The notes under the pieces: generated by a model | What the model was told of the DNA's origin: nothing | Database searches by the model: none | What the model saw: the letters and a program-made list of their open reading frames with translations, nothing else | Origin: Vulcanimicrobiota bacterium | GTDB lineage: Bacteria; Vulcanimicrobiota; Vulcanimicrobiia; Vulcanimicrobiales; Vulcanimicrobiaceae | Reading direction: 5' to 3' | Assembly: GCA_003135555.1 (NCBI GenBank) | Contig: PLCF01000058.1 | Span: 1 to 27,430 of the forward strand | DNA: 27,430 nt | Shown here: one piece after another, positions 1-16,525 of the stretch | Position numbering within the stretch: the stretch's first letter is position 1 | Layout of the letters: each line of letters begins with the position of its first letter | Translations under genes and position numbers: made by a program

Positions 1-186
1 AAACCGCGGGGTCACTTCACACCCGCCGCCCGCATCGGGCCGCATCGCCACGAGCGCGCCGTCGCACCCAGCGCAGAGGATCACGTGCGTCTTCGTCCGG
101 TCGCCGTCCTCGAACCAGAAGCGGCCCATGTCGTCGCTTTGCGCCGGGCCTCTATTTCTCTCCCAATCGCGGGGACGCCGATCCAT
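1..186 (-). CDS. Partial hypothetical ORF with a CxxC motif, running off the window edge; possibly a remnant
   Basis: Manual translation: MDRRPRDWERNRGPAQSDDMGRFWFEDGDRTKTHVILCAGCDGALVAMR... It resembles the C-terminus of 13616..13996. Start uncertain. Confidence 0.3.
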   Translation of the reverse strand, partial: MDRRPRDWERNRGPAQSDDMGRFWFEDGDRTKTHVILCAGCDGALVAMRPDAGGGCEVTPRF

Positions 187-701
187 CCGGTGTTACATCG
201 GGCGGAACGTCTTGCGACGACAAGGAGCGAACAATAACAGACTGCGGCGTCGGAGGCACGGCGTTACAGGCTTCGGAGGTGGCTTAGGCGGGTCGTCTGC
301 CATAGTGAGCCTCCTCTCACCAATGCTTTCTTCCAGCGCCGTCTTTTCTCTTGCGCTGTGCTCGGTAGTGCGCGAAACCGTCGGAGCCTGAAATGGATAC
401 GGGTCGGCCCTGTTCGTCGGGGCGCGACATGTGCGGCACGATCTGCGCCCCAATTTGGACATTCGCGCCTCGTCGAATCGATTCTCGCGCAGTGCGGCAT
501 CCGGCACCGCCGGGTGGGGAATCGGCGAGCACGGATCGGCGTCGAGCGCCCTGCGTGCGCGGCTTTTCGCAGATCGTCGGCGGAGCGGGACCCACCCCTC
601 TCAACAGGGGTGCCAGTTTGGGTACCGGTAAGCGTGCCCTGCCGCATCATCGTGAGTAGGGGCCTTCTGGGAAGAGCCAGGCTCGTTAATGCGTTGCACG
701 G

Positions 702-968
702 ATGCTCACGAGGAAGACAACACGCGCGGTGCGGGCTGCCTCAGATTTGGAATCGACTGGAGGTCTCTACACGCGGACCTCGGCTGAGGTATACACGGAG
801 TACGCACTTCCCGGCGATGATCTGTCCCGGGTCCTGCGCTCGATAACGAACCGCGAGCTTCAAGACCGGACCGGGCTAGCACGGAGCACGATCCAGCGCT
901 TAAGAAATAGCACCGTAATGGCTCGGGTAAAAACAACGACGCTACTCCGCGAGGCATCAAGCGAATAA
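702..968 (+). pseudogene. Short XRE-like helix-turn-helix ORF, probably the C-terminal remnant of a larger gene
   Basis: ITNRELQDRTGLARSTIQRLRN fits an HTH pattern. There is no clear RBS, and an in-frame stop lies just upstream at 687-689. Confidence 0.4.
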
Positions 969-1014
969 CGTAAGCTGTCAAACAATGGTCGATAATGGGC
1001 AGTGATCGGATCCA

Positions 1015-1710
1015 TCATTCCTTTGCCGCAACGTCGGCCAGACAAACCATTAGTAGTTGCCGGTGCCATGAGGGAACCGATTGTCCCAAGATTCTAGAGA
1101 CAAGCTCATCTCGTATATTGCTTGCGAACTCCACTCCATCTGAAACGAGACCAAGCGCATCTTCGGGGCTGGTCAGGTCTTTCCGGTCGGTAAGTGTCCG
1201 ATGCGCGAATGCACCTCGTGCCCTAAGTAATCGATGCAGTGACGCTTCGAATCGGCTACTCGTACTCAGTTCAATCCCAAGCGGCCAAAAGAGTCGACGG
1301 AGATGTTTTCGCCCTGCTCCATGATTCCCAAGCTCGACGTGCTGCGCAAACCTGTCACACGCGTCAGAAAACGCAGCTTGTAACGTCCCCATGAAGTCGT
1401 GATGAGTTGGGTCGCCATAAAGATAGCCTTCTTTTTTGCCGTGATACAGAAGCATCGGCGCTCGAAGTGCATCTCTCCTCGCGTCAGTTCCGGCCGTATC
1501 TCTAAGCCACTCGAGATAAAGCAAAGCAAACGACTCCAGCGTGTGTTCAAGTGACGCATATGATAGAACGCAAAATGACTTCACATCTATAACGTAAGCT
1601 TCTGGAGGTTCTACGGCGCCGACGTGTGGATCGATGAAGTTCCCTTTGAGCTGCAAAACGCCATCAGCGAGTGCACCCAGCAACTCGTCTATGGCATCAA
1701 CGGCGCTCAT
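1015..1710 (-). CDS. HEPN domain protein (RiboL-PSP/MAE_28990-like), putative RNase effector
   Basis: R-x4-H motif (RGAFAH) and an N-terminal helix with conserved Glu (SFCVLSYASLE). ATGA overlap with the upstream DUF262 gene. Confidence 0.75.
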   Translation of the reverse strand: MSAVDAIDELLGALADGVLQLKGNFIDPHVGAVEPPEAYVIDVKSFCVLSYASLEHTLESFALLYLEWLRDTAGTDARRDALRAPMLLYHGKKEGYLYGDPTHHDFMGTLQAAFSDACDRFAQHVELGNHGAGRKHLRRLFWPLGIELSTSSRFEASLHRLLRARGAFAHRTLTDRKDLTSPEDALGLVSDGVEFASNIRDELVSRILGQSVPSWHRQLLMVCLADVAAKE

Positions 1711-3434
1711 TGCTCGATTAGGATCTCCGGCAATTCAAATGTTCTCCCAAAAACATTCGATGCTAGTGTCGCGACGTGTTGAAAGCGAACTTTATACTGA
1801 TCCAAACTTTTTGTCGTTACGCTTACTGACGACCTAAAATCGTTGCTCAACGAATAGAGGGCGATAAAGCCGTTACGGAAGGACTCCTCCTTGCCCCGAA
1901 GCTCCTTGTCCGACACTTGCCGGATGTACCATATTTGTGTCTCGAATATCGCACGATTAAAGCGACGATCAAATGTGCCTTTAGGCATCGGTCGGCGCCC
2001 GACCGAAGTCGCTCCGCCAAATATCGCGATGAGTCGCCTTATAGCGCTCTCGAAAGATTCATGTGCAAGTTCCAGCTTGTTACGATATCGGCGCCAATCG
2101 GCGTTGAATTTATTTGTCACTTCATCAAGGAAACCACGCAAGTTCCCTCGGTATAGTTCAAAGTGTAACACTTGAGCGAAGTATCGCAGCATAATTTCTG
2201 AATCGCGATATCGCGGGTCTGGACCTGAAAGGCCAAGAACGTCGTGAATTTGGGTTTTTTTACTGGTGAGGCGGTCCAAAAACGTTGTAAATTCGCCGCG
2301 GTACAAAGATTGGCGGAGTTCCTGTGGACTAAGGCTCACTGATCCGGAATTCAGACGATAGAATACGTAATATAGGTACTCGTAAGATATGGAACTTCGG
2401 CTCGATATTACGGCGCAGCGGACATCAGCATTCATCAATTCGCGATGTGCGGAACGATACTTTGGATTGTTTGCTAATTCTGCAAACGAGACGCCATCTA
2501 GGTCTGGAAGAATATTTAGACCGGACAGCCGATGCTTTTGCCAATACGGTACTGTAGTATCAATGTATCCCCAGAGTGTCATCAGGCGTTGTCGACCATC
2601 GATGACAATAAACGACCGTTTCTCGTCGGGTTTTTCCGCAAAAACGAGTTGAGGAACCGGAATGCCGGCTATGAGGCTTTCGATGAGGCCGCTTCGCTTG
2701 TCATCGGTCCACGCATTCCGCCGCTGGAATTCCGGATCGAGCTTAATATTGCCGGACGTAATCTGGTCGATCACTGTCGCGACAGTCCAATCGCGCGAAT
2801 AAACAACGAGGTCGCGATAGTCTGGCGGCGTTTGGAAGTCGGCGAGAGTCTCGTCGGGATCTTCGTAAAGACCAACGGTATCAGACTCAATCTCGGCGGT
2901 CAGCTCTTCCACGTTAGTTTCACTGGGGCACAAGAGACTGATTAGTGCTGCGCTAACGCCCTGTACCGAAAGTTCGTCTATCGAATAGTTCCGTGGTTCC
3001 ATCCACTCGGCTCGATCGCTGAGCCGGTTGCCGTCTGCGATCGGGCCGCCCGGCGGAATTGATGGGACGAGTTGTGCCGTATCCTTGCTCAGAACCCGTA
3101 GGACGCCGCCGTGTGCGCCGCGCCTGAGTGACCAAGTTCGCTCGCTTGTTTCTGTAATGTCAACTTCGCATGTCTCGAGAACGCGAGTTGCAATTTCGGC
3201 GAACCATTGGTAAATGTCCAATCGCTGATTCCCCCGGGAGAGGCGCTGACGCGGCGACTCTCGATTCTCCTGCTGTTTGCTAAGGGTGGTTGATTGGGGG
3301 TGGTCCGGCGGTTGCTTTGCGAATGCCTGCCGCGGTTGAAAGGCTGGAGCTAGAATGACGCAATAATCATCCCGCGTATTTCGGCCGGGGACGGCATTTC
3401 CTAGACCTAGTTTGGTGTTCGCCGCCGCCGGCAA
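1707..3434 (-). CDS. DUF262 (GmrSD N-terminal, ParB/Srx-like) domain protein; true start probably downstream (ATG near 3003 or GTG 2912)
   Basis: Motifs PEFQRRNAW, LIESLIAGIPVP, VIDGRQRL and FYRLNSGSVSLSPQELR. The first ~140 codons look less protein-like. Confidence 0.88.
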   Translation of the reverse strand: MPAAANTKLGLGNAVPGRNTRDDYCVILAPAFQPRQAFAKQPPDHPQSTTLSKQQENRESPRQRLSRGNQRLDIYQWFAEIATRVLETCEVDITETSERTWSLRRGAHGGVLRVLSKDTAQLVPSIPPGGPIADGNRLSDRAEWMEPRNYSIDELSVQGVSAALISLLCPSETNVEELTAEIESDTVGLYEDPDETLADFQTPPDYRDLVVYSRDWTVATVIDQITSGNIKLDPEFQRRNAWTDDKRSGLIESLIAGIPVPQLVFAEKPDEKRSFIVIDGRQRLMTLWGYIDTTVPYWQKHRLSGLNILPDLDGVSFAELANNPKYRSAHRELMNADVRCAVISSRSSISYEYLYYVFYRLNSGSVSLSPQELRQSLYRGEFTTFLDRLTSKKTQIHDVLGLSGPDPRYRDSEIMLRYFAQVLHFELYRGNLRGFLDEVTNKFNADWRRYRNKLELAHESFESAIRRLIAIFGGATSVGRRPMPKGTFDRRFNRAIFETQIWYIRQVSDKELRGKEESFRNGFIALYSLSNDFRSSVSVTTKSLDQYKVRFQHVATLASNVFGRTFELPEILIEQ

Positions 3435-4141
3435 ATGCGGCGGGCCAAAGGTTTTCGAAGTCCTGTCTCCTGGTCCACGCCGGAAGCGTCGAGTGGCAGG
3501 GACCGCGCATCAGATGGCTCCAGCTTATCGCCAACCGGCAAGGTCCTTGTCGGCTCATGGGGGGCCGCGTTTCAGAGGGCCCTATCTCCTATCCCGGCTG
3601 CGCGCCGATCGCGGTTGCGACGAATTGGATCGTGACGAGGGTTGGCGAAGACCGCCCGACCGCCACTTTCCTCGGCGTGAGGCCTGCGCGCCAAGTGAGG
3701 TGATGCTAATGCGCGGACCTGCCGAATGTACCGCACTCGCGGGGGCACGTTGGCCTGCGCTGAGGCGCGCAGACGAGCGTGACGATGGAATGGCGACGAA
3801 GATCGGCAGCCCTCGCGCGACTCTCCCGAAACCGACCGGTTCCGGGATGCGGGACGAACAGCGCTGCAACCCGGTGGCGTCGGTCCCGAAATATCGTCCC
3901 GGAACTCGCGACATGGCCCTTCGCGCGGCTCGCGAACGGTGGCGAGACCCAGGCCGTTGCTCGACGCGCTCGACCTCCTCGCGTCGCGGCTACATTTCGC
4001 GGTCAGGTGGCGGCTAGCCACGCGGCGGCAGAATGAACCGCATCGGATCGAAGTCCTCGACCGGCCTCGCAGTGAACGAGTAGAACCTGGATTGCAGCCA
4101 TCCGCGCACCTGGCCCCCAAGAGCGACGCCGTACGGACGTG

Positions 4142-5308
4142 CTACGTGCGGAACACGACTTCAAGCTCCCAGACGTCTTTTCCGCGCGCGCGTGCCCGGC
4201 GACCCAGACTGAGGATCCGCTCGATCGCGGCCGATTCCATGCACTCACTCTGCAGCTCGGCACGGTACCATTCCCAGAAGTCCCCACCGCCCGCCGCGCG
4301 CGCGTCGGCGCGCTTCGCTGCCGCCTCGCACTGCTCGAGCAATTCTTGGCGCTGCGCGTGCTCGCCGATGCGGTCGAGTCGCCGCATGATCTCATCGCTC
4401 CAGCCTTGCTGGTTCTCCGAGCTGAGCCTGCGTTCCCAATCAAACTGCGGCACCGCAACGTCGATATCGAATTGCGGGTCCGGCGCGCCGAGAAGTGGCT
4501 GACGATATCGGATTCCGCCCTCGACGGGCATTACGACCGGGAGCCTACACAGGTACGGGTACGCGTCGAACAGCAGCACACTGACGTACGTGCGGTCGCC
4601 GGCGGGAAAACAGGTAATCTCGTGGCGCGGCGGCCACGCCGACGGGAACAGCACATTGTCGAAAGGCGGCGTGCGAACATACTTGCCGCCGGCGAGTTGC
4701 TCGCCGAACACGAAGGGCAGCAATTCATTCGCGACGGCCGCCGGGACGTCGCTGATAAACCCGGCGAAAAAGTGAAGCGCGATCTTTAGCACGCCGGCCT
4801 CCGACGCGCGGTCGGACCCAACCTCGAACGTGAGCGGCGGCGCCTTGCCGATCGTCGCGATGACGTGGTTTGTGCCGGTCGTCGCAAACGCGCCTTGCCG
4901 CATCAGGTTATCGAGCCGGGAGAGGTCGCCCTTTGCGCGCGTGATGCGCCCGCGTTCGTCACGCTTCTCGACTTCAAGAGCGAGCAACGGGACGCGACCG
5001 TCGGAGGTGACCGTCATCGTCCGCCCGTCGTCCGTTACTCCGTCGAACGAGACGCCGACATTTCCGTCGTGACGGCGCACGCGCAGGAGGTTGACCAGCG
5101 GGCGGACGTTCGCGCTGAACGGTTCGTCGGTCCGCGCGCCGATGATGCGGTTGTGCTCCGGGCAGAGGATGTTGGCCCAGAGCCTGCCTCCAATCGCCTG
5201 CGGCACGGCGTGCTCCCCCGACGTCGCCGGCCTCGTGCAGTACAGGCACTGCTCCGGCGCCCTGCGGTGCCGATCGATGAGCGCGCCGGACGTCAGTCGG
5301 TCCATCAC
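4142..5308 (-). CDS. HNH endonuclease (N-terminal HNH_5-type domain plus uncharacterised C-terminal region)
   Basis: CLYC...EHAVPQAIGG...LCPEHN pattern in a 388-aa ORF. Confidence 0.8.
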   Translation of the reverse strand: MMDRLTSGALIDRHRRAPEQCLYCTRPATSGEHAVPQAIGGRLWANILCPEHNRIIGARTDEPFSANVRPLVNLLRVRRHDGNVGVSFDGVTDDGRTMTVTSDGRVPLLALEVEKRDERGRITRAKGDLSRLDNLMRQGAFATTGTNHVIATIGKAPPLTFEVGSDRASEAGVLKIALHFFAGFISDVPAAVANELLPFVFGEQLAGGKYVRTPPFDNVLFPSAWPPRHEITCFPAGDRTYVSVLLFDAYPYLCRLPVVMPVEGGIRYRQPLLGAPDPQFDIDVAVPQFDWERRLSSENQQGWSDEIMRRLDRIGEHAQRQELLEQCEAAAKRADARAAGGGDFWEWYRAELQSECMESAAIERILSLGRRARARGKDVWELEVVFRT

Positions 5309-5670
5309 CTGTATTTAACCGCGCGTGCGCGCTGGACGATGCGGATCACGCCCCCATCCTCATGCCAGGCACTCAGGCACGAAGTGTGGCGCGCAGCGTG
5401 GAGGCGCAGGGACGAGATCCCGGCGGCGCTCGCGAGCCACGGCTTACCCCTCGGCGTCCACCGGCGGCGTTTTGTCGGTCCAGCCGGCGGCGAAAATCGA
5501 CGACGACCGATTCCGAGCCGACGAGCGGGATGGCGGGTACGTCTTGTCAGACCATGTCCGAGGAGACCGAGGCGCACAAGAAGGCGAAGGACGCCGCCAA
5601 GGCCGGCCCGGGACCCCGCCCTTCGCTCGACCGGTGTAACTGCATCGAGCACGTGCGGTAGAATGGCTGC

Positions 5671-5865
5671 ATGCCGAGCTACAACCTTTTTCGCTGTCCG
5701 GACGGCCATGAACGTCGATCGTACGGATCCTTCGGCCTCAGCAAGGCCGGCTTGCCGCCGACGGAGCACATGCTGTGTACTGGGACGGCTGCCGGGGGTT
5801 CGCCGTGCAAGAAGCTCGCTGTCTTTGTAGCATTTGTGAAAGACGAGCCTCCGGCGGCTCCCTAG
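5671..5865 (+). CDS. Small Cys/His protein, putative zinc ribbon, probably leaderless
   Basis: CPDGH plus two further Cys. TAGAAT at 5659-5664 lies 6 nt before the ATG. Confidence 0.5.
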   Translation: MPSYNLFRCPDGHERRSYGSFGLSKAGLPPTEHMLCTGTAAGGSPCKKLAVFVAFVKDEPPAAP

Positions 5866-6149
5866 CCCAGCGCCCTCGCGATCGTCACCGCGACGTTCAT
5901 TGCGACGAACCGGTCCCGGCGGTCCCCGATGCTCAGCATGACGCGCCGCTGAGCGCCCTCGCGCCACACCATCCAGCGGTCGATAGTCATGGACTCCGCG
6001 CCGCGACGGATCGCGATCAACCGGCCGCGCCGGGTAACGGTGACGTCGGGCAACCGCTGTCGCACGCCGGCGACGACGAGCTCCGCGAATGCATCGAACC
6101 CAATGTCCGGCCCAGCCGGCGGGATCTCGGAAGCTCGAGCAGCGCCCAT
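5862..6149 (-). CDS. Hypothetical protein
   Basis: 95-aa ORF with protein-like composition. Its stop overlaps the stop of the convergent 5671..5865 ORF. Confidence 0.45.
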   Translation of the reverse strand: MGAARASEIPPAGPDIGFDAFAELVVAGVRQRLPDVTVTRRGRLIAIRRGAESMTIDRWMVWREGAQRRVMLSIGDRRDRFVAMNVAVTIARALG

Positions 6150-6255
6150 CCCGCGATTGTAGCCGTTGGCGAGCGCAGCATGGTAATGCAGCGAGCCGCG
6201 GTCGAAGGCGGGGCGACGAGGTCGCGCGTGATCCTCGTGCTGAAAAGCGAACGCT

Positions 6256-6714
6256 ATGCCAAAATACGAGGGACCAGCCGCAGATAGCCCCGGCTACGCG
6301 ATCCGCGACAAAGGCTTGATGCCGTTCATTCCCGTGGTGCTGAGCCAGCCGTATGACCCCGCTGGTCTGACCCTGGCTGGCACGCGGCCGAACACCGGGC
6401 GGGCCTGGGCGCTCGTCGACACTGGAGCGAACATCACGATCATCCATCCGAACGCCGTCCGCGCCCTCGAACTGCCGGCAACCGGGACGCTGAAATCCAA
6501 GGCGCAGCACGGGCTGATCGCCGGCCGCCGAATTCGTGTTGGCATTGTCGTCGTCACCGACGAGATGAACACCGACAATATGACGTTTCTCGACGCGCTG
6601 GAGCATGAGTACGCCAGTGCACACGACGCGCAGATTGTTCTCGGCGCGAATTGGCTGGACGATCGTCACTTGGTCTATGACGGACCGAGGCGACACTTTA
6701 CGATCAGCTGGTAG
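6256..6714 (+). CDS. Retropepsin-like (clan AA) aspartyl protease
   Basis: ALVDTGA catalytic motif and C-terminal IVLGANWL motif; single-domain size. Confidence 0.85.
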   Translation: MPKYEGPAADSPGYAIRDKGLMPFIPVVLSQPYDPAGLTLAGTRPNTGRAWALVDTGANITIIHPNAVRALELPATGTLKSKAQHGLIAGRRIRVGIVVVTDEMNTDNMTFLDALEHEYASAHDAQIVLGANWLDDRHLVYDGPRRHFTISW

Positions 6715-6913
6715 CGCTGCTGCGCGCCGTCGCTCCGCGTTTGCTCGAGCGACTTCCTGAGCGTAGGCGTTCTTCGAGCTTCCCGACGCTTCTCACCGCC
6801 GCGGGCGGCCCGCGCTGGTACGCCGCTCGAGCGCGCGGCCTTATCCGTCCGTCCGTCCGTGACATCAGCCGCGCGACCCCGGGACCCCAAAGGGCGACGA
6901 AGAAGCTCGCATC

Positions 6914-7408
6914 GTGACCCAAGCCCAGATCGCGACCCTGGCGAGCGTAGGTCCTCAACTGCTCGCGTTACTGATGGGTGCTTTCCTCGCGGTCGCTGGC
7001 GGCCTTTGGCTCAAGTGGCATGACGAGCGTCGCGCCGCGCGAGCCGTCCGCGTTCAGTTTGTTCGCCTGTTGGCGCTAGTGCGCGCTGCAATCGCTCCGT
7101 TCATCGACGACCGGACGGCGCCGATGAGCCTGCTCTCTGATCCGTCGATCAGCTACCTTCGGGAACGCGCGTTCTCCGCTGACGCGGCGCTGGCGCTGAC
7201 CGAGCGCGAGAATCACCTAGTCCACGACGCGCTGCAGCAACTTCTGCGCTCGACGGACTATATCGACGAACGTCGGCGGGCTGCAAGCCCCCAGGCGAGC
7301 GGCGCGAGTCTTGCCATCATCCAGAATTTCCACGAGATTCCCGACGCCGCACGGGAGGCCGTTGTGCAACTCGACGCCGCGGCCGCCGAGATTCAGAAGA
7401 ACGTCTGA
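6914..7408 (+). CDS. Hypothetical protein with an N-terminal transmembrane helix
   Basis: Hydrophobic LLALLMGAFLAVAGGLWL followed by basic residues and a helical domain. Confidence 0.65.
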   Translation: MTQAQIATLASVGPQLLALLMGAFLAVAGGLWLKWHDERRAARAVRVQFVRLLALVRAAIAPFIDDRTAPMSLLSDPSISYLRERAFSADAALALTERENHLVHDALQQLLRSTDYIDERRRAASPQASGASLAIIQNFHEIPDAAREAVVQLDAAAAEIQKNV

Positions 7409-7499
7409 CGCCACCGGGCCGCGACGGCGATCTCACCATATATGGGCGTAGGCAGTAGGGTGGCAGTAGAGGATCCGGGCTCTAAAGCAAGCAGGTGAT

Positions 7500-7526
7500 A
7501 AAAAACCGCGCCGTAGCGCGGTTTTT
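7500..7526. terminator. Bidirectional intrinsic terminator
   Basis: AAAAACCGCGC-CGTA-GCGCGGTTTTT perfect hairpin with A/T tracts on both sides, directly 3' of the tRNA-Ile fragment. Confidence 0.75.
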
Positions 7527-7527
7527 C

Positions 7528-7576
7528 TGGTGGGCCATCCTGGTCTCGAACCAGGGACCTCATGCTTATCAAGCAC
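7528..7576 (-). pseudogene. 3' half of tRNA-Ile(GAT), att-core-like fragment
   Basis: Minus strand reads GTGC-TTGATAA-GCATG-AGGTC-CCTGG-TTCGAGA-CCAGG-ATGGCCC-A-CCA. No D arm or 5' acceptor strand upstream. Confidence 0.8.
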
Positions 7577-7716
7577 AATCCGGCCCCCAGCTAGCCGCTC
7601 GGCTTGGGATCGAACCCCGACTCGAACGAGCAAGGGGATCGCGGGCCGCAAATGAAGCGACGTGACCGTCGGAGTACCTTCCGATGTGCCGTCGCCATAG
7701 GAAGGGCTGCCGTCTG

Positions 7717-7830
7717 CGGTTGCCATTCGGTTGCCGTCAGTGGCAACTGTCGGCGACCTTTAACAACCCCACTGGTGCGAAACCCCCTAACTTTTACGAG
7801 GGATTTCAACCGTTGGCGACTCTTGGCAAC
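7717..7830. repeat. Phased short repeats, candidate integrase arm-type or accessory binding sites
   Basis: CGGTTGCC at 7717 and 7728; GGCAAC 7742 and GGCGAC 7752; TTGGCGAC 7813 and TTGGCAAC 7823. Spacing is 10-11 bp. Confidence 0.5.
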
Positions 7831-7839
7831 CCTCGCGTG

Positions 7840-7867
7840 GCGGGTTCGATTCCCGCCGCCCGCTCCA
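7840..7867 (+). mobile_element. 3' fragment of tRNA-Gly, probable attR marking the right boundary of a genomic island
   Basis: GCGGG-TTCGATT-CCCGC-CGCCCGC-T-CCA is a T arm, a Gly-type acceptor 3' strand, U73 and CCA. No 5' part is present, and accessory genes lie to the left. Confidence 0.75.
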
Positions 7868-9102: not shown

Positions 9103-9942
9103 GTGAGGCGCGGTCGGTTTGTCGCCTTGCTGGGCGCAAGTTGTTTCGCACGGCCGATCGTCGTCGAAGCGGCGTCGCGCGACGAGCTGGTCTGGTACGC
9201 AGGCGACCTGGATGGTGCGCGCACGTTCTCCAACGGTGCCGACCGTGTGCTGCCCGCCGCTTCGGTCATCAAACTGCTGATCGCGCGGACGCTCGTCGAC
9301 GCCGTCTCATCAGGCCAACTCTCACTGGACACACGGGTACCGCTGAACCTGCGCGACCGCGTCGGAGGTTCCGGCCGGTACGGTGCGACGCCCCCGGGGC
9401 GCTATCGTGTCGCTGAGCTCCTCGGCGCGATGCTCTCGCTGAGCGACAACACCGCGTCGAACGTTTTGCTCCACTACCTTGGTGCAGAACGATGCAACCG
9501 CCGGGCGGCGGCTTCGGGTTTTACGGCGACCCGCATTCGCCGCAGCTTCTATGATTGGGAAGCGCGAAGGCGCGGCTTGGAGAACACGACGACGACGCGC
9601 GAGAGCGCGCTGCTCTTGGTGGAGCTCGCACGGCGAGCGCAAGTCCGTGGTCGCGACGGCGAGGTTGCGCGGGCGACCATGCGCGCGCTGCTCGCCCAGA
9701 CCGATCGCGAGACGATCCCGGCGGCTCTGCCACGTAGGAGCGCCATTGCGAATAAGACCGGCGAGTTGCCGGGGATCAGAAACGACGTCGCGATCGTCGG
9801 CTACGGTCGTCCCGGCGCGTACGTCGTCTCGGTGATGGACCGCTACCGTGCGACCCGGACGGCCGCGATCGAACGGATCCGGGCGCTCGTCGCGACCCTC
9901 GATCGCCGGCTCGAGCAGTCCCCAGCCATCACGCGGTCATAG
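9103..9942 (+). CDS. Class A beta-lactamase-like serine hydrolase
   Basis: SVIK (SxxK), SDN and KTG motifs. Start moved to GTG 9103, giving a twin-Arg-like leader (RRGRFVALLG). Confidence 0.85.
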   Translation: MRRGRFVALLGASCFARPIVVEAASRDELVWYAGDLDGARTFSNGADRVLPAASVIKLLIARTLVDAVSSGQLSLDTRVPLNLRDRVGGSGRYGATPPGRYRVAELLGAMLSLSDNTASNVLLHYLGAERCNRRAAASGFTATRIRRSFYDWEARRRGLENTTTTRESALLLVELARRAQVRGRDGEVARATMRALLAQTDRETIPAALPRRSAIANKTGELPGIRNDVAIVGYGRPGAYVVSVMDRYRATRTAAIERIRALVATLDRRLEQSPAITRS

Positions 9943-9981
9943 TGCCGCACTGGTGGCACAGCGATCGCTTAGAATTGCACA

Positions 9982-10512
9982 ATGAGTTCGACGATTCCAG
10001 GCGTGTCGCTTTTCATCGATGACGAGATGGGCGGCCGGCAAATGCACTTCGCGTTGACGCCCGAGTTCGAGGCGAAGTACGAACTGAAACCACTAGCAGT
10101 CGATTCGGCAAAGCGCAACACGAAGAGAATAGGCGATATTTCGGAGCTTCATGCGATAATAGCGTTGACGAAGATGGGTTACAAAGTATTGTTGCCCTTC
10201 GGCGAGAATCAGCGCTACGATTTTGTTGTGGATGATGGGCGGACGCTGTCGCGCATTCAAGTAAAAACGGGCCGACTCCGAAACGGCGTGATCTTGTACG
10301 GCGCTGCAAGTACGCACGGACATCGGGGTCGCCCGTGTCGCCCGTACCGGGGCGAAGTCGAGTACTTCGCCGTCTATTGTCCGGATACGGAGAAGGTCTA
10401 TTTGGTACCCGAGTCGGACCTTACGAGGTCCCTCGGGAGCCTGCGTGTCGCGCCGACGAAGAACAACGTTCAGAAGACGGTGCGGTGGGCTTCGACGTAC
10501 GAGCTGGCGTAG
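9982..10512 (+). CDS. Group I intron-associated-type PD-(D/E)XK endonuclease (PDDEXK_5-like)
   Basis: GDISE...LLPFGENQRYDFVVD...RIQVKTG...YFAVYCP. Stop codon lies within tRNA-Thr. Confidence 0.85.
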   Translation: MSSTIPGVSLFIDDEMGGRQMHFALTPEFEAKYELKPLAVDSAKRNTKRIGDISELHAIIALTKMGYKVLLPFGENQRYDFVVDDGRTLSRIQVKTGRLRNGVILYGAASTHGHRGRPCRPYRGEVEYFAVYCPDTEKVYLVPESDLTRSLGSLRVAPTKNNVQKTVRWASTYELA

Positions 10513-10577
10513 CTTAGTGGTAAAGCACGTGCATGGTAAGTACGAGATCGTGGGTTCAATCCCCACCGCCAGCTCCA
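10503..10577 (+). tRNA. tRNA-Thr(GGT)
   Basis: GCTGGCG/CGCCAGC acceptor, anticodon loop ATGGTAA, T arm GTGGG-TTCAATC-CCCAC, encoded CCA. Confidence 0.95.
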
Positions 10578-10586
10578 GAAGCAGAT

Positions 10587-10622
10587 CGAGACCCTCCCGC
10601 CGCGGAGGGTCTCGTCGCTTTC
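10587..10622 (+). terminator. Terminator-like hairpin after tRNA-Thr
   Basis: CGAGACCCTCC/GGAGGGTCTCG 11-bp stem followed by a short T run. Confidence 0.6.
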
Positions 10623-10641: not shown

Positions 10642-11598
10642 ATGGCTACCGCCGTATCGACCGACAGCGCGAAGCGCGCCCTCCTCGAACGCCTCGTCGA
10701 CGACGCGGGGCTCTTCCCGCCCGCGCAGTTGCCGATGCGGCTCGCGCTGCGAGCGCACGCCCGCCACCGCGAGAGCGCCTACTCGTGGATCGGCGGCCGC
10801 TTCGTGGTCCCGGCCTCGCGGCTGGACGAGTTCGCGACCGCGCGCGCCTTGGAACGTGCCCCGGTCGACCTGAGCGTCGTGCTCGACTCGGGCTCCCGCG
10901 GCGCCAAGGGCGACACCGTGCGAGCCGACCTGGAGCGCGTCGAGCGGATCCGCCAACTCGACGGCGTTACGGTGTCGTCGTTCGAAGCCCGGCTCCCGCG
11001 GCTGGCGCTCGACGACGCGGCCACGAAGCGAATCGTCGCCGATCTCGTCGAGCGCTATCCCAGCACCGAGGTCGCCTTCTGGTACGAGTCGTCCTACGCT
11101 GCCGGCTGGGCGACGCCGCCCGACCAGTGGCTCGCCGAGCTCGCGAGCGCGCGCAAAGCCGCTCCGGCGAACGTGCTGCTGGGCGCGAAGGTGCGTTGCG
11201 GCGGAGCCGCTGCGGGAGCGACCCCGTCAGTTGAGGACCTGGCGGACTTCATCGTCGCGGCGCATGCGAACGACGTACCGTGGAAAGCGACGGCGGGGCT
11301 CCATCATCCCGTGCGCGGGACGCACGCCGATGGCGGTGCGGTTCCGCACGGCTTCCTCAACGTCGTCGTTGCGGCCGCCGCGTTGCACGCCGGCGCCGTC
11401 GAAGCAGCGCGCGTCGCCGAGATCCTCGCCGAAACGAACCCGCGCGCGTTCGTGGTCGATCCCGCCCACGTCGGCTGGCGTGAGGTACGGCTCGAAGCCG
11501 AGCAGGTTGCCGCGGCGCGCGAGCGCTGCGTCGCGTTCGGCAGTTGCAGCTTCGACGAGCCGGTCAACGACTTGCGCGAGCTCGGCCTGCTCTCGTGA
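10642..11598 (+). CDS. Conserved hypothetical protein typically found beside fumarylacetoacetase
   Basis: LVDDAGLFPP, KVRCGG, KATAGLHHP, HGFLN and FGSCSFDEP motifs. GTGA overlap with fahA. Confidence 0.8.
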   Translation: MATAVSTDSAKRALLERLVDDAGLFPPAQLPMRLALRAHARHRESAYSWIGGRFVVPASRLDEFATARALERAPVDLSVVLDSGSRGAKGDTVRADLERVERIRQLDGVTVSSFEARLPRLALDDAATKRIVADLVERYPSTEVAFWYESSYAAGWATPPDQWLAELASARKAAPANVLLGAKVRCGGAAAGATPSVEDLADFIVAAHANDVPWKATAGLHHPVRGTHADGGAVPHGFLNVVVAAAALHAGAVEAARVAEILAETNPRAFVVDPAHVGWREVRLEAEQVAAARERCVAFGSCSFDEPVNDLRELGLLS

Positions 11599-16429: not shown

Positions 16430-16525
16430 CAGAGACGGTGGGATTCGGACCCACGGGGGCGCCCCTGAAAAGCCTCCCCGCCCGGACCTAACGCCGGGTG
16501 CCTTAAACCGCTCGGCCACGTCTCC
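16430..16525 (-). ncRNA. Irregular tRNA-like gene with a Ser-like body, long variable arm and 8-nt anticodon loop
   Basis: GGAGACG-TG-GCCGAGCGGTTTAAGGC-A-CCCGG-CGTTAGGT-CCGGG-(26-nt V arm)-GTGGG-TCCGAAT-CCCAC-CGTCTCT-G-ACA. Confidence 0.8.

Follow-up and report, generated by a model that had tools for sequence, protein, structure and literature searches.

The life cycle of homing endonucleases is known as the Goddard-Burt cycle. Its decay step is described in PMC3984707. The endonuclease family PF11645 has only one characterised member, I-Ssp6803I (structure 2OST), which is reported to bind a 23-bp pseudo-palindrome as a tetramer (PMC3384342) and, going by the title of a 2001 paper by Bonocora and Shub that PMC3984707 cites, is specific for the anticodon region. 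SegB of phages T4 and T6 is described as a free-standing nuclease that lies in a tRNA cluster, spreads with the flanking tRNA genes and recognises a T-arm motif (PMC2330249), and intronless homing in T4 has been reported for SegF and SegG (PMC2988022; PMC13096335). A further point of comparison is the PafBC promoter consensus, given as tGTCgg(N10)tA(N3)T in PMC8635444.

Here we analysed a 27,430-nucleotide stretch of DNA from a Vulcanimicrobiota bacterium (contig PLCF01000058.1; hereafter the window) in which a PF11645 nuclease gene ends inside a tRNA gene. We consider it probable that this gene takes part in intronless homing, timed by DNA damage and directed at the anticodon arm of the tRNA, with a cassette that delivers a resistant tRNA allele and variants that replace each other. 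The proposal is made because of the properties of I-Ssp6803I and the intronless homing of T4. In the literature searched, mostly non-subscription articles, we met no earlier account of PF11645 genes that stand free on a chromosome beside tRNA-Thr or tRNA-Ala, of nuclease-linked hypervariability of tRNA stems, or of an SOS-type motif for this phylum or the promoter motif reported below.

A nuclease gene that ends inside tRNA-Thr(GGT)

The intron-less ORF at 9982-10512 on the forward strand, where all features lie unless stated otherwise, encodes a 176-aa PD-(D/E)XK endonuclease of the I-Ssp6803I family. It matches the PF11645 profile with E 3e-34 and 118 bits (curated cut-off 26.1) and I-Ssp6803I/2OST by sequence with E 1.4e-8, while a search of NCBIfam with the same protein gave no match. 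The labels carried by its homologues point to a host in Vulcanimicrobiota/Eremiobacterota. The best Foldseek match of its predicted fold (model pLDDT 87.8) is 2OST at E 6e-9, and the four 2OST chains are the only matches at E<=0.001. Residues D52, E55, D80, Q93 and K95 are intact and align with the catalytic D/E...D...QxK motif of 2OST; the Q of 2OST opposite E55 is presumably an engineered change. D80, Q93 and K95 are invariant among 76 aligned nuclease sequences. An N-terminal extension of about 40 aa is modelled with low confidence. The gene is under purifying selection, with a median dN/dS of 0.20 over 24 intact genus copies (261 pairs with finite dS) whose synonymous sites are near saturation. 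Five other proteins (P0003, P0122, P0124, P0196 and P0209) contain at least two tandem PF11645 domains each and are possibly single-chain versions of the oligomer.

An earlier note on this DNA had read the frame as ending in GAG CTG GCG TAG within the tRNA, with TAGAAT 6 nt before the ATG and a tRNA devoid of introns, and these readings were borne out. The intron-less tRNA-Thr(GGT), with its CCA encoded, occupies 10503-10577, the TAG at 10510-10512 forms its bases 8-10, and the -10 element TAGAAT is found at 9970-9975. No group I intron is present in the tRNA-Thr at this locus, and the nuclease is not intron-encoded. The terminator that the note placed after the tRNA can be kept as a 10-bp terminator-like hairpin at 10588-10613, the approximate right limit of the exchanged unit (see below), but its T-tract is weak and a consensus terminator scan did not list it. 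Two features had been overlooked: a palindrome, TGCC-N8-GGCA, at 9942-9959 (about -40 to -23), which is a candidate site for a DNA-damage regulator, and the variable stem of the anticodon arm at 10528-10544, here the variant CGTGC/GTACG, which is the putative target region.

This tRNA is the only canonical Thr(GGT) found in the window assembly (G000). A second copy with a non-canonical loop belongs to a 16-gene array of atypical tRNAs (C83:48687-50222) that also includes a gene with a CTA anticodon, and a separate atypical Gly pair is located at C40:841-989. To the left of the nuclease, a beta-lactamase-family gene (PF13354; 9046-9942), whose stop abuts the palindrome, is a variable neighbour outside the cassette; to the right, a conserved host gene with no Pfam family (10642-11598) forms a vertically inherited flank. 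The locus is assigned to a Thr(TGT)-Tyr-Gly-Thr(GGT) cluster known from relatives. A 28-bp copy of the tRNA-Gly(TCC) 3' end at 7840-7867 is the attR of an island and shows that this island has driven Gly and Thr apart in the window. The Gly-to-Thr interval is a hotspot for islands, with a spacing of 508-1739 bp where both tRNAs are visible. The island at tRNA-Gly(TCC), covering window positions 1-7867 and C64:1-1410 of G000, carries GmrSD, HEPN, HNH and aspartyl-protease genes, and C64 has a resolvase-like ORF (by motif) after its intact Gly. Further along the window (16430-16525, reverse strand), an element that resembles a tRNA (ARAGORN tRNA-???, no Rfam match), whose variable arm is long and whose anticodon loop has 8 nt, stands beside a lower-GC block at 16.5-20.3 kb that contains an HTH/IrrE-like gene, an IS1-family transposase and a trypsin-like gene.

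Occurrence of the nuclease at tRNA genes

The nuclease was matched in 25 of 36 same-genus relatives and in 0 of 24 genomes of other families. Each of the 26 same-genus genomes with a match, the window genome among them, has a frame that terminates at TAG 8-10 of Thr(GGT); two of these copies are broken further upstream. PF11645 matches, many of them partial or frameshifted, were found in 68 of 301 genomes of the phylum and 65 of 211 within the family, a family of soil bacteria. The earlier note had asked how often homologues adjoin a tRNA 5' end: Thr(GGT) is directly downstream in 60 of 65 loci examined (a set that includes some genomes already in the 36-relative survey), often in the order Tyr-Gly-nuclease-Thr. 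Of the other five, two are intron-borne within a tRNA-fMet-like gene, one neighbours a tRNA array and the last two run to the edge of a contig. The intron-borne pair, L049 and L050, from the same phylum, are situated in introns of about 654 nt in the anticodon loop of tRNA-fMet-like genes, and at L083 (G172) two tandem nuclease copies stand behind one common promoter.

Genomes without a match have either empty alleles or short pieces left over from the nuclease 3' end. Four of the empty alleles carry a sigma-70-like promoter ahead of the tRNA, and three of the genus remnants were called by eye or on weak matches. The nuclease is an optional gene at a fixed intergenic site, and the empty alleles that the earlier note had looked to in relatives do exist, next to intact, broken and remnant ones.

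In GTDB at large, a tRNA is nearby in 77 of the best 80 of 254 loci: 38 of these 80 have Thr(GGT) downstream, 37 (Actinomycetota) are adjacent to Thr(TGT), two are at Asn and three have no tRNA. At the 37 Thr(TGT)-adjacent loci among these best 80, the tRNA is divergent in 25, upstream in 10 and downstream in 2. In Gaiellales, the order of G360, 26 of 141 evenly drawn genomes match PF11645, and 17 of 20 further loci stand before tRNA-Ala(GGC). Viral homologues inhabit tRNA arrays, with tRNAs within 1.5 kb at 30 of 31 loci, and two of them stand before Thr(GGT); at the viral loci L197, L202, L204 and L207, tRNAs for the same amino acid flank the gene on both sides (Ile/Ile, Lys/Lys, Ser/Ser and Asn/Asn). 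Nuclease clades track the partner tRNA, with 11 changes against 74 after shuffling, on a FastTree tree of 146 rows and only 135 columns. Linkage, stem and tree counts throughout include one or two rows from genomes flagged as unpublished (G032, G269), and the Gaiellales counts include G392, flagged likewise.

Predicted promoter

The palindrome TGCC-N8-GGCA precedes the -10 element in 23 of the 26 same-genus genomes. In the window genome the two occur together 12 times at 11-nt spacing and 0-4 times at ten other spacings, and a promoter profile found 25 sites against 2 and 2 in two shuffles; the bare palindrome is not enriched genome-wide (57 vs 25-54). The profile made from 57 sites has ATG or GTG at +1, and the nuclease mRNA is predicted to be leaderless, with a predicted start site. 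All 27 genomes that reach far enough upstream of recA carry the same motif there, and the palindrome also occurs in the lexA upstream region. The motif TGCCA-N6-TGGCA with a -10 element is seen in G000 on C94 (recA), at C58:262954 (lexA) and on C31, C11, C7, C14, C17, C43 and C53. Other sites stand before genes named by motif only: radA, TnpB, an IS1595-type transposase and three HNH genes next to tRNAs. HNH-type genes with this promoter at tRNA genes are those at C69:29579-28903 (reverse strand), C64:1843 (forward) and C40:798 (reverse), of which the one on C69 lacks a leader and has its stop within tRNA-Gln(CTG), at bases 13-15.

The motif TGCCA-N6-TGGCA plus -10 probably marks a DNA-damage regulon that many mobile genes (TnpB-like, IS1595-like, HNH) have joined, and its palindrome is a candidate SOS box for the phylum. 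It may be a LexA box or a PafBC-like -26 element; the window genome encodes LexA and two WYL-domain matches as candidate regulators. On this reading of the promoter, the nuclease would be induced by DNA damage together with recA. The palindrome was also considered as a sigma-54 element, an idea given up since the -12 GC, judged by eye, lacks conservation, and a likeness of the palindrome spacer to the tRNA D-loop, seen by eye only, is not claimed. Upstream of recA in Gaiellales, a GTCCG-N10/11-TAnnnT-like motif is present in 5 of 5 regions (by eye), and 22 of 57 Gaiellales nuclease genes match a strict version of the GTCCG-type motif. Many Gaiellales nuclease genes (L253, L256, L258, L259, L262, L267, L275, L276, L297, L298, L303, L309 and others) have a second conserved motif upstream in common, about GGACACGGCCCAGCCGAT.

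Diversity of the anticodon stem

The 76 nuclease-linked loci have 34 different 5-bp anticodon stems with 377 of 380 pairs intact, compared with 10 stems in 35 family alleles without a nuclease trace and 2 in 11 outgroup alleles. For Thr(GGT) in 25 genus genomes we counted by hand 15 stems, 15 in the 21 nuclease-bearing genomes and 1 in the four nuclease-free ones, a single contrast since the nuclease-free genomes of genus g1 are one clade of four. Control tRNAs in the same 25 genomes have one stem for Ala(TGC) in 22 genomes and for Asn in 20, two for Ala(CGC) in 25, three for Ala(GGC) in 22, four for Thr(CGT) in 22 and five for Phe in 18, and a six-genome recA clade has one Thr(CGT) stem and four Thr(GGT) stems. 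In two genomes (G008:C33:10481-10576; G026:C82:94231-94324), tRNA-Phe has partial copies in tandem, 57-59 nt apart, whose anticodon stems differ.

CGTCC or CGTCA is the commonest stem in nuclease-free alleles. In genus g13, for which 36 of the PF11645-negative genomes were taken in, these two stems occur in 1 of the 19 alleles with the nuclease, 1 of the 8 with a remnant and 13 of the 28 with no trace of it (p 0.002, Fisher), 15 of these 28 having variant stems; for Ala(GGC) in Gaiellales, the three commonest stems account for 5 of 18 linked and 93 of 119 unlinked genomes (p 4e-5, Fisher), and both p values overstate the significance because kin are not independent. The same Gaiellales genomes have 14 stems when linked (18) and 13 when unlinked (119), in a hand count from which five second rows were dropped and in which three links were judged by coordinates.

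It is probable, as stated above, that the anticodon arm is what the nuclease cuts. A mobile nuclease at tRNA loci may of course have some other target, such as the T-arm (as in T4 SegB), the neighbouring Thr(TGT) or the tRNA arrays of incoming phages, the last as a domesticated SOS-induced defence, and stem diversity would then come from co-transfer of the donor tRNA. We regard this as unlikely, although several observations speak for it. The T-stem varies too (5 types among 28 g1 alleles), as do the D-stem and acceptor stem, but all vary less than the anticodon stem, which is the most variable tRNA element in both phyla (about 3.9-4.8 bits vs 2.0-2.8 for the T-stem). The T-arm recognition reported for SegB (PMC2330249) lends the alternative a precedent; the intron-borne members of the present family, in contrast, occupy the anticodon loop. 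Thr(TGT), 1 kb away, has variable stems in the genus, and the relatives checked have no nuclease beside it, although three nuclease-free genomes share one stem. The viral homologues, with their tRNA arrays and two positions before Thr(GGT), would suit a phage target, and two of 61 intact nucleases (G011, G317) coexist with CGTCC, the commonest stem in empty alleles. Against a retained host function, frequent decay and loss fit a selfish cycle better.

Some results count against the proposed resistant stem, among them G011 and G317 with their CGTCC. By parsimony the stem requires 17 changes on the nuclease tree and just as many on the recA tree, and hence follows the former no more closely, and over 61 nuclease-stem pairs no clear residue-to-base code emerged (top mutual-information z 4.7, spread over many columns). 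Thr(TGT) of Gaiellales was tried as a control and set aside as undiscriminating, since its stems are diverse in unlinked genomes too. Because Thr(TGT) varies without a linked nuclease, Thr stems may be intrinsically lax. In the group of the window genome, Thr(TGT) also comes in two forms, one with an unusual long variable arm (L004, L005, L006, L008, L024, L063; G000 C64:1730-1813).

Evidence for exchange between hosts

When the nuclease data were tested against seven recA clades, three clades were rejected (AU p 0.001, 9e-5 and 0.02), one was contained and three were not rejected, the nuclease tree resting on 426 near-saturated columns. For the gene that starts 65 nt past the tRNA, the host groups hold together and the strongest nuclease clade is rejected (p 5e-5). 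Upstream DNA is common to the members of each of the sets G012/G015/G017, G022/G023 and G006/G028, whose nucleases fall in different clades. Common upstream DNA beside unrelated nucleases, together with a downstream gene that follows the host, suggests that the exchanged unit extends from about the promoter to the terminator. Promoter, nuclease and tRNA thus appear to have been replaced in place between hosts, with both flanks following the host tree; some vertical signal is left in the nuclease (rho 0.32 with the downstream gene). At locus L019 (G002), a copy that looks older and ends in tRNA bases 1-11 is followed by an HNH-like ORF and a second full cassette. As evidence of tRNA 5' stumps upstream of the cassette, G002 alone is convincing; of the matches listed, the other 12, each 10-11 nt long, appear to be chance. 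The nuclease alleles found side by side range from intact through degenerate and remnant to empty. The earlier note's view of a free-standing, selfish-type nuclease tied to a tRNA gains from these data, with purifying selection, broken copies and replacement between hosts all in its favour.

The nuclease could instead be a neutral passenger, an old insertion next to a tRNA in a recombination-prone island hotspot, its stem drifting and its tree conflict a product of saturation. The Gly-to-Thr hotspot (attR at 7840; spacing 508-1739 bp), the variation of Thr stems without a linked nuclease and the near-saturated synonymous sites would all accord with this. We nevertheless find it quite improbable, given that dN/dS is 0.20 with invariant catalytic residues, that a regulated-type promoter has been kept despite saturated synonymous sites, that host clades are rejected in AU tests of the nuclease but the flanks agree with the host tree, and that in a second phylum the variability of Ala(GGC) goes with linkage.

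The stop codon within the tRNA

T8-A9-G10 is present in most tRNAs, so that an ORF which runs into one in this frame will end at that point, and the exact position of the stop therefore carries little information; the adjacency, and a frame running into the tRNA, are well beyond chance. Among 61 distinct intact alleles of the family, 49 overlap the tRNA 5' end by stopping at TAG 8-10, nine stop before the tRNA and three read further. The 60 alleles that could be placed fall into two spacer classes, 33 in which the nuclease core abuts the tRNA, as in the window, and 27 with a longer spacer. A promoter-like TAGG...GTA motif is predicted just before the tRNA in 22 of the 27 long-spacer alleles and also precedes nuclease-free alleles (by eye). 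Conservation of TAGG-N12-20-GAGTA/CGTA before tRNA-Thr(GGT) across several genera (L114-L149, and long-spacer loci such as L051-L098) suggests an alternative-sigma tRNA promoter. Long-spacer alleles lacking their own stop keep the TAG 8-10 frame in 16 of 19 cases, at 8 spacer lengths that are multiples of three apart, which argues that the borrowed stop is maintained.

Short-spacer alleles, the window included, have no conserved -10-like element within 200 nt before the tRNA (the best TAnnnT position is shared by 8 of 33), which makes co-transcription of nuclease and tRNA plausible. An internal tRNA promoter in the short-spacer alleles was considered and rejected, as no TAnnnT is conserved in them; in the window, a consensus scan gave a TTGACG/TATTGT match at 10165-10192, which is no more than a candidate. 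In three metatranscriptome contig sets from the same study, only two short tRNA pieces with foreign flanks were present, which weigh on neither side.

The earlier note had gone further and proposed that tRNA maturation removes the stop, so that a non-stop mRNA limits expression. Part of this survives: the stop is 3' of the RNase P site, tmRNA and SmpB are encoded in the window genome, and the frame is kept. A tRNA promoter of its own, which would speak against the idea, is predicted in the 22 long-spacer alleles and not in short-spacer ones. As a general design the limiter is not supported, since overlap of the stop is not conserved throughout the nuclease family: nine of 61 intact alleles stop earlier, and at Thr(TGT) the tRNA lies upstream or divergent in 35 of 37 loci. 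The promoter of recA/lexA type is a more visible candidate for limiting the nuclease than a non-stop mRNA. That the main function of the overlap is to let RNase P remove the stop and tmRNA tag the nuclease for destruction is very unlikely in our view, for although the 49 overlapping alleles, the frame kept over 8 spacer lengths, the unrelated HNH-type gene with the same promoter that stops inside tRNA-Gln(CTG), the presence of tmRNA and SmpB and the short-spacer alleles with no evident separate tRNA promoter all favour it, the alleles with their own stop, the Thr(TGT)-linked homologues and a stop at 8-10 in only 3 of 17 Ala(GGC)-linked loci weigh against it, and selection against reading through the tRNA explains the frame-keeping equally well.

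Discussion

Damage-timed intronless homing on the anticodon arm remains the reading that we prefer. The cassette would consist of promoter, nuclease and tRNA, about 700 bp in all, and would be spreading at the chromosomal tRNA-Thr(GGT) locus. DNA damage would turn on the leaderless promoter along with recA. The enzyme, like I-Ssp6803I, would then bind the 5+7+5 pseudo-palindrome of the anticodon arm and cut a stem allele that it recognises. Repair from a donor copy would import the nuclease together with the donor tRNA, whose re-paired stem would resist the cut. Variants would oust one another at the same site, decay and vanish, leaving a stem that is varied but paired. The nuclease would borrow the TAG at tRNA bases 8-10 as its stop, and ribosomes would thereby be kept from entering the body of the tRNA. 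In the window genus, where the spacer with the tRNA's own promoter seems to be gone, removal of the stop by RNase P may damp expression as a side effect. The sequences themselves show the family, the intact catalytic motif, the fixed linkage, the common promoter motif, the tree conflict, the purifying selection and the variability of the stem relative to controls, whereas we infer cleavage, its target, induction, resistance and the route of the donor DNA.

A wider version of this proposal can be put forward only tentatively. Damage-timed, chromosomal, intron-less nucleases may be running a gene-drive arms race on essential tRNAs, in which the anticodon-arm palindromes of rivals are cut and promoter-nuclease-tRNA units are replaced. 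The stems of Thr(GGT) in Vulcanimicrobiota, and of Ala(GGC) and perhaps Thr(TGT) in Gaiellales, would evolve far faster and yet stay paired. In the window genus, a tRNA with no evident promoter of its own would lend the stop, and tRNA maturation and nuclease dose may be coupled. If true, a puzzling pattern would have a cause, namely that one housekeeping tRNA has different anticodon stems in almost any two sister species, intronless homing would act on bacterial chromosomes and not in phages alone, and selfish nucleases would time themselves to RecA induction. Dozens of natural pairs of enzyme and stem are on offer, which makes the idea directly testable by a cleavage matrix.

The window nuclease and I-Ssp6803I are alike in family, fold and catalytic motif. 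I-Ssp6803I is borne in a group I intron of a cyanobacterial tRNA-fMet, whereas the window gene is intron-free and stands beside an intact tRNA-Thr; protection comes from a split site in the former and, as we propose, from a variant stem in the latter. The window nuclease also differs in having its own leaderless promoter of recA type and an N-terminal extension. SegB, SegF and SegG are free-standing nucleases that spread with flanking DNA, as proposed for the window cassette. SegB, however, is a phage GIY-YIG enzyme directed at the T-arm, while the window nuclease is a chromosomal PD-(D/E)XK enzyme at an essential single-copy tRNA, and the window cassette, unlike SegB, has signs of variant replacing variant. 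The predicted promoter resembles PafBC/RecA-NDp promoters in geometry (a hexamer at -28 to -23, 10 nt, then TAnnnT) and differs from the PafBC consensus in sequence and in being a full palindrome. As in the Goddard-Burt cycle, intact, degenerate, remnant and empty alleles are found side by side, but here the target gene itself appears to diversify with its pairing kept, so that re-invasion need not wait for loss of the element.
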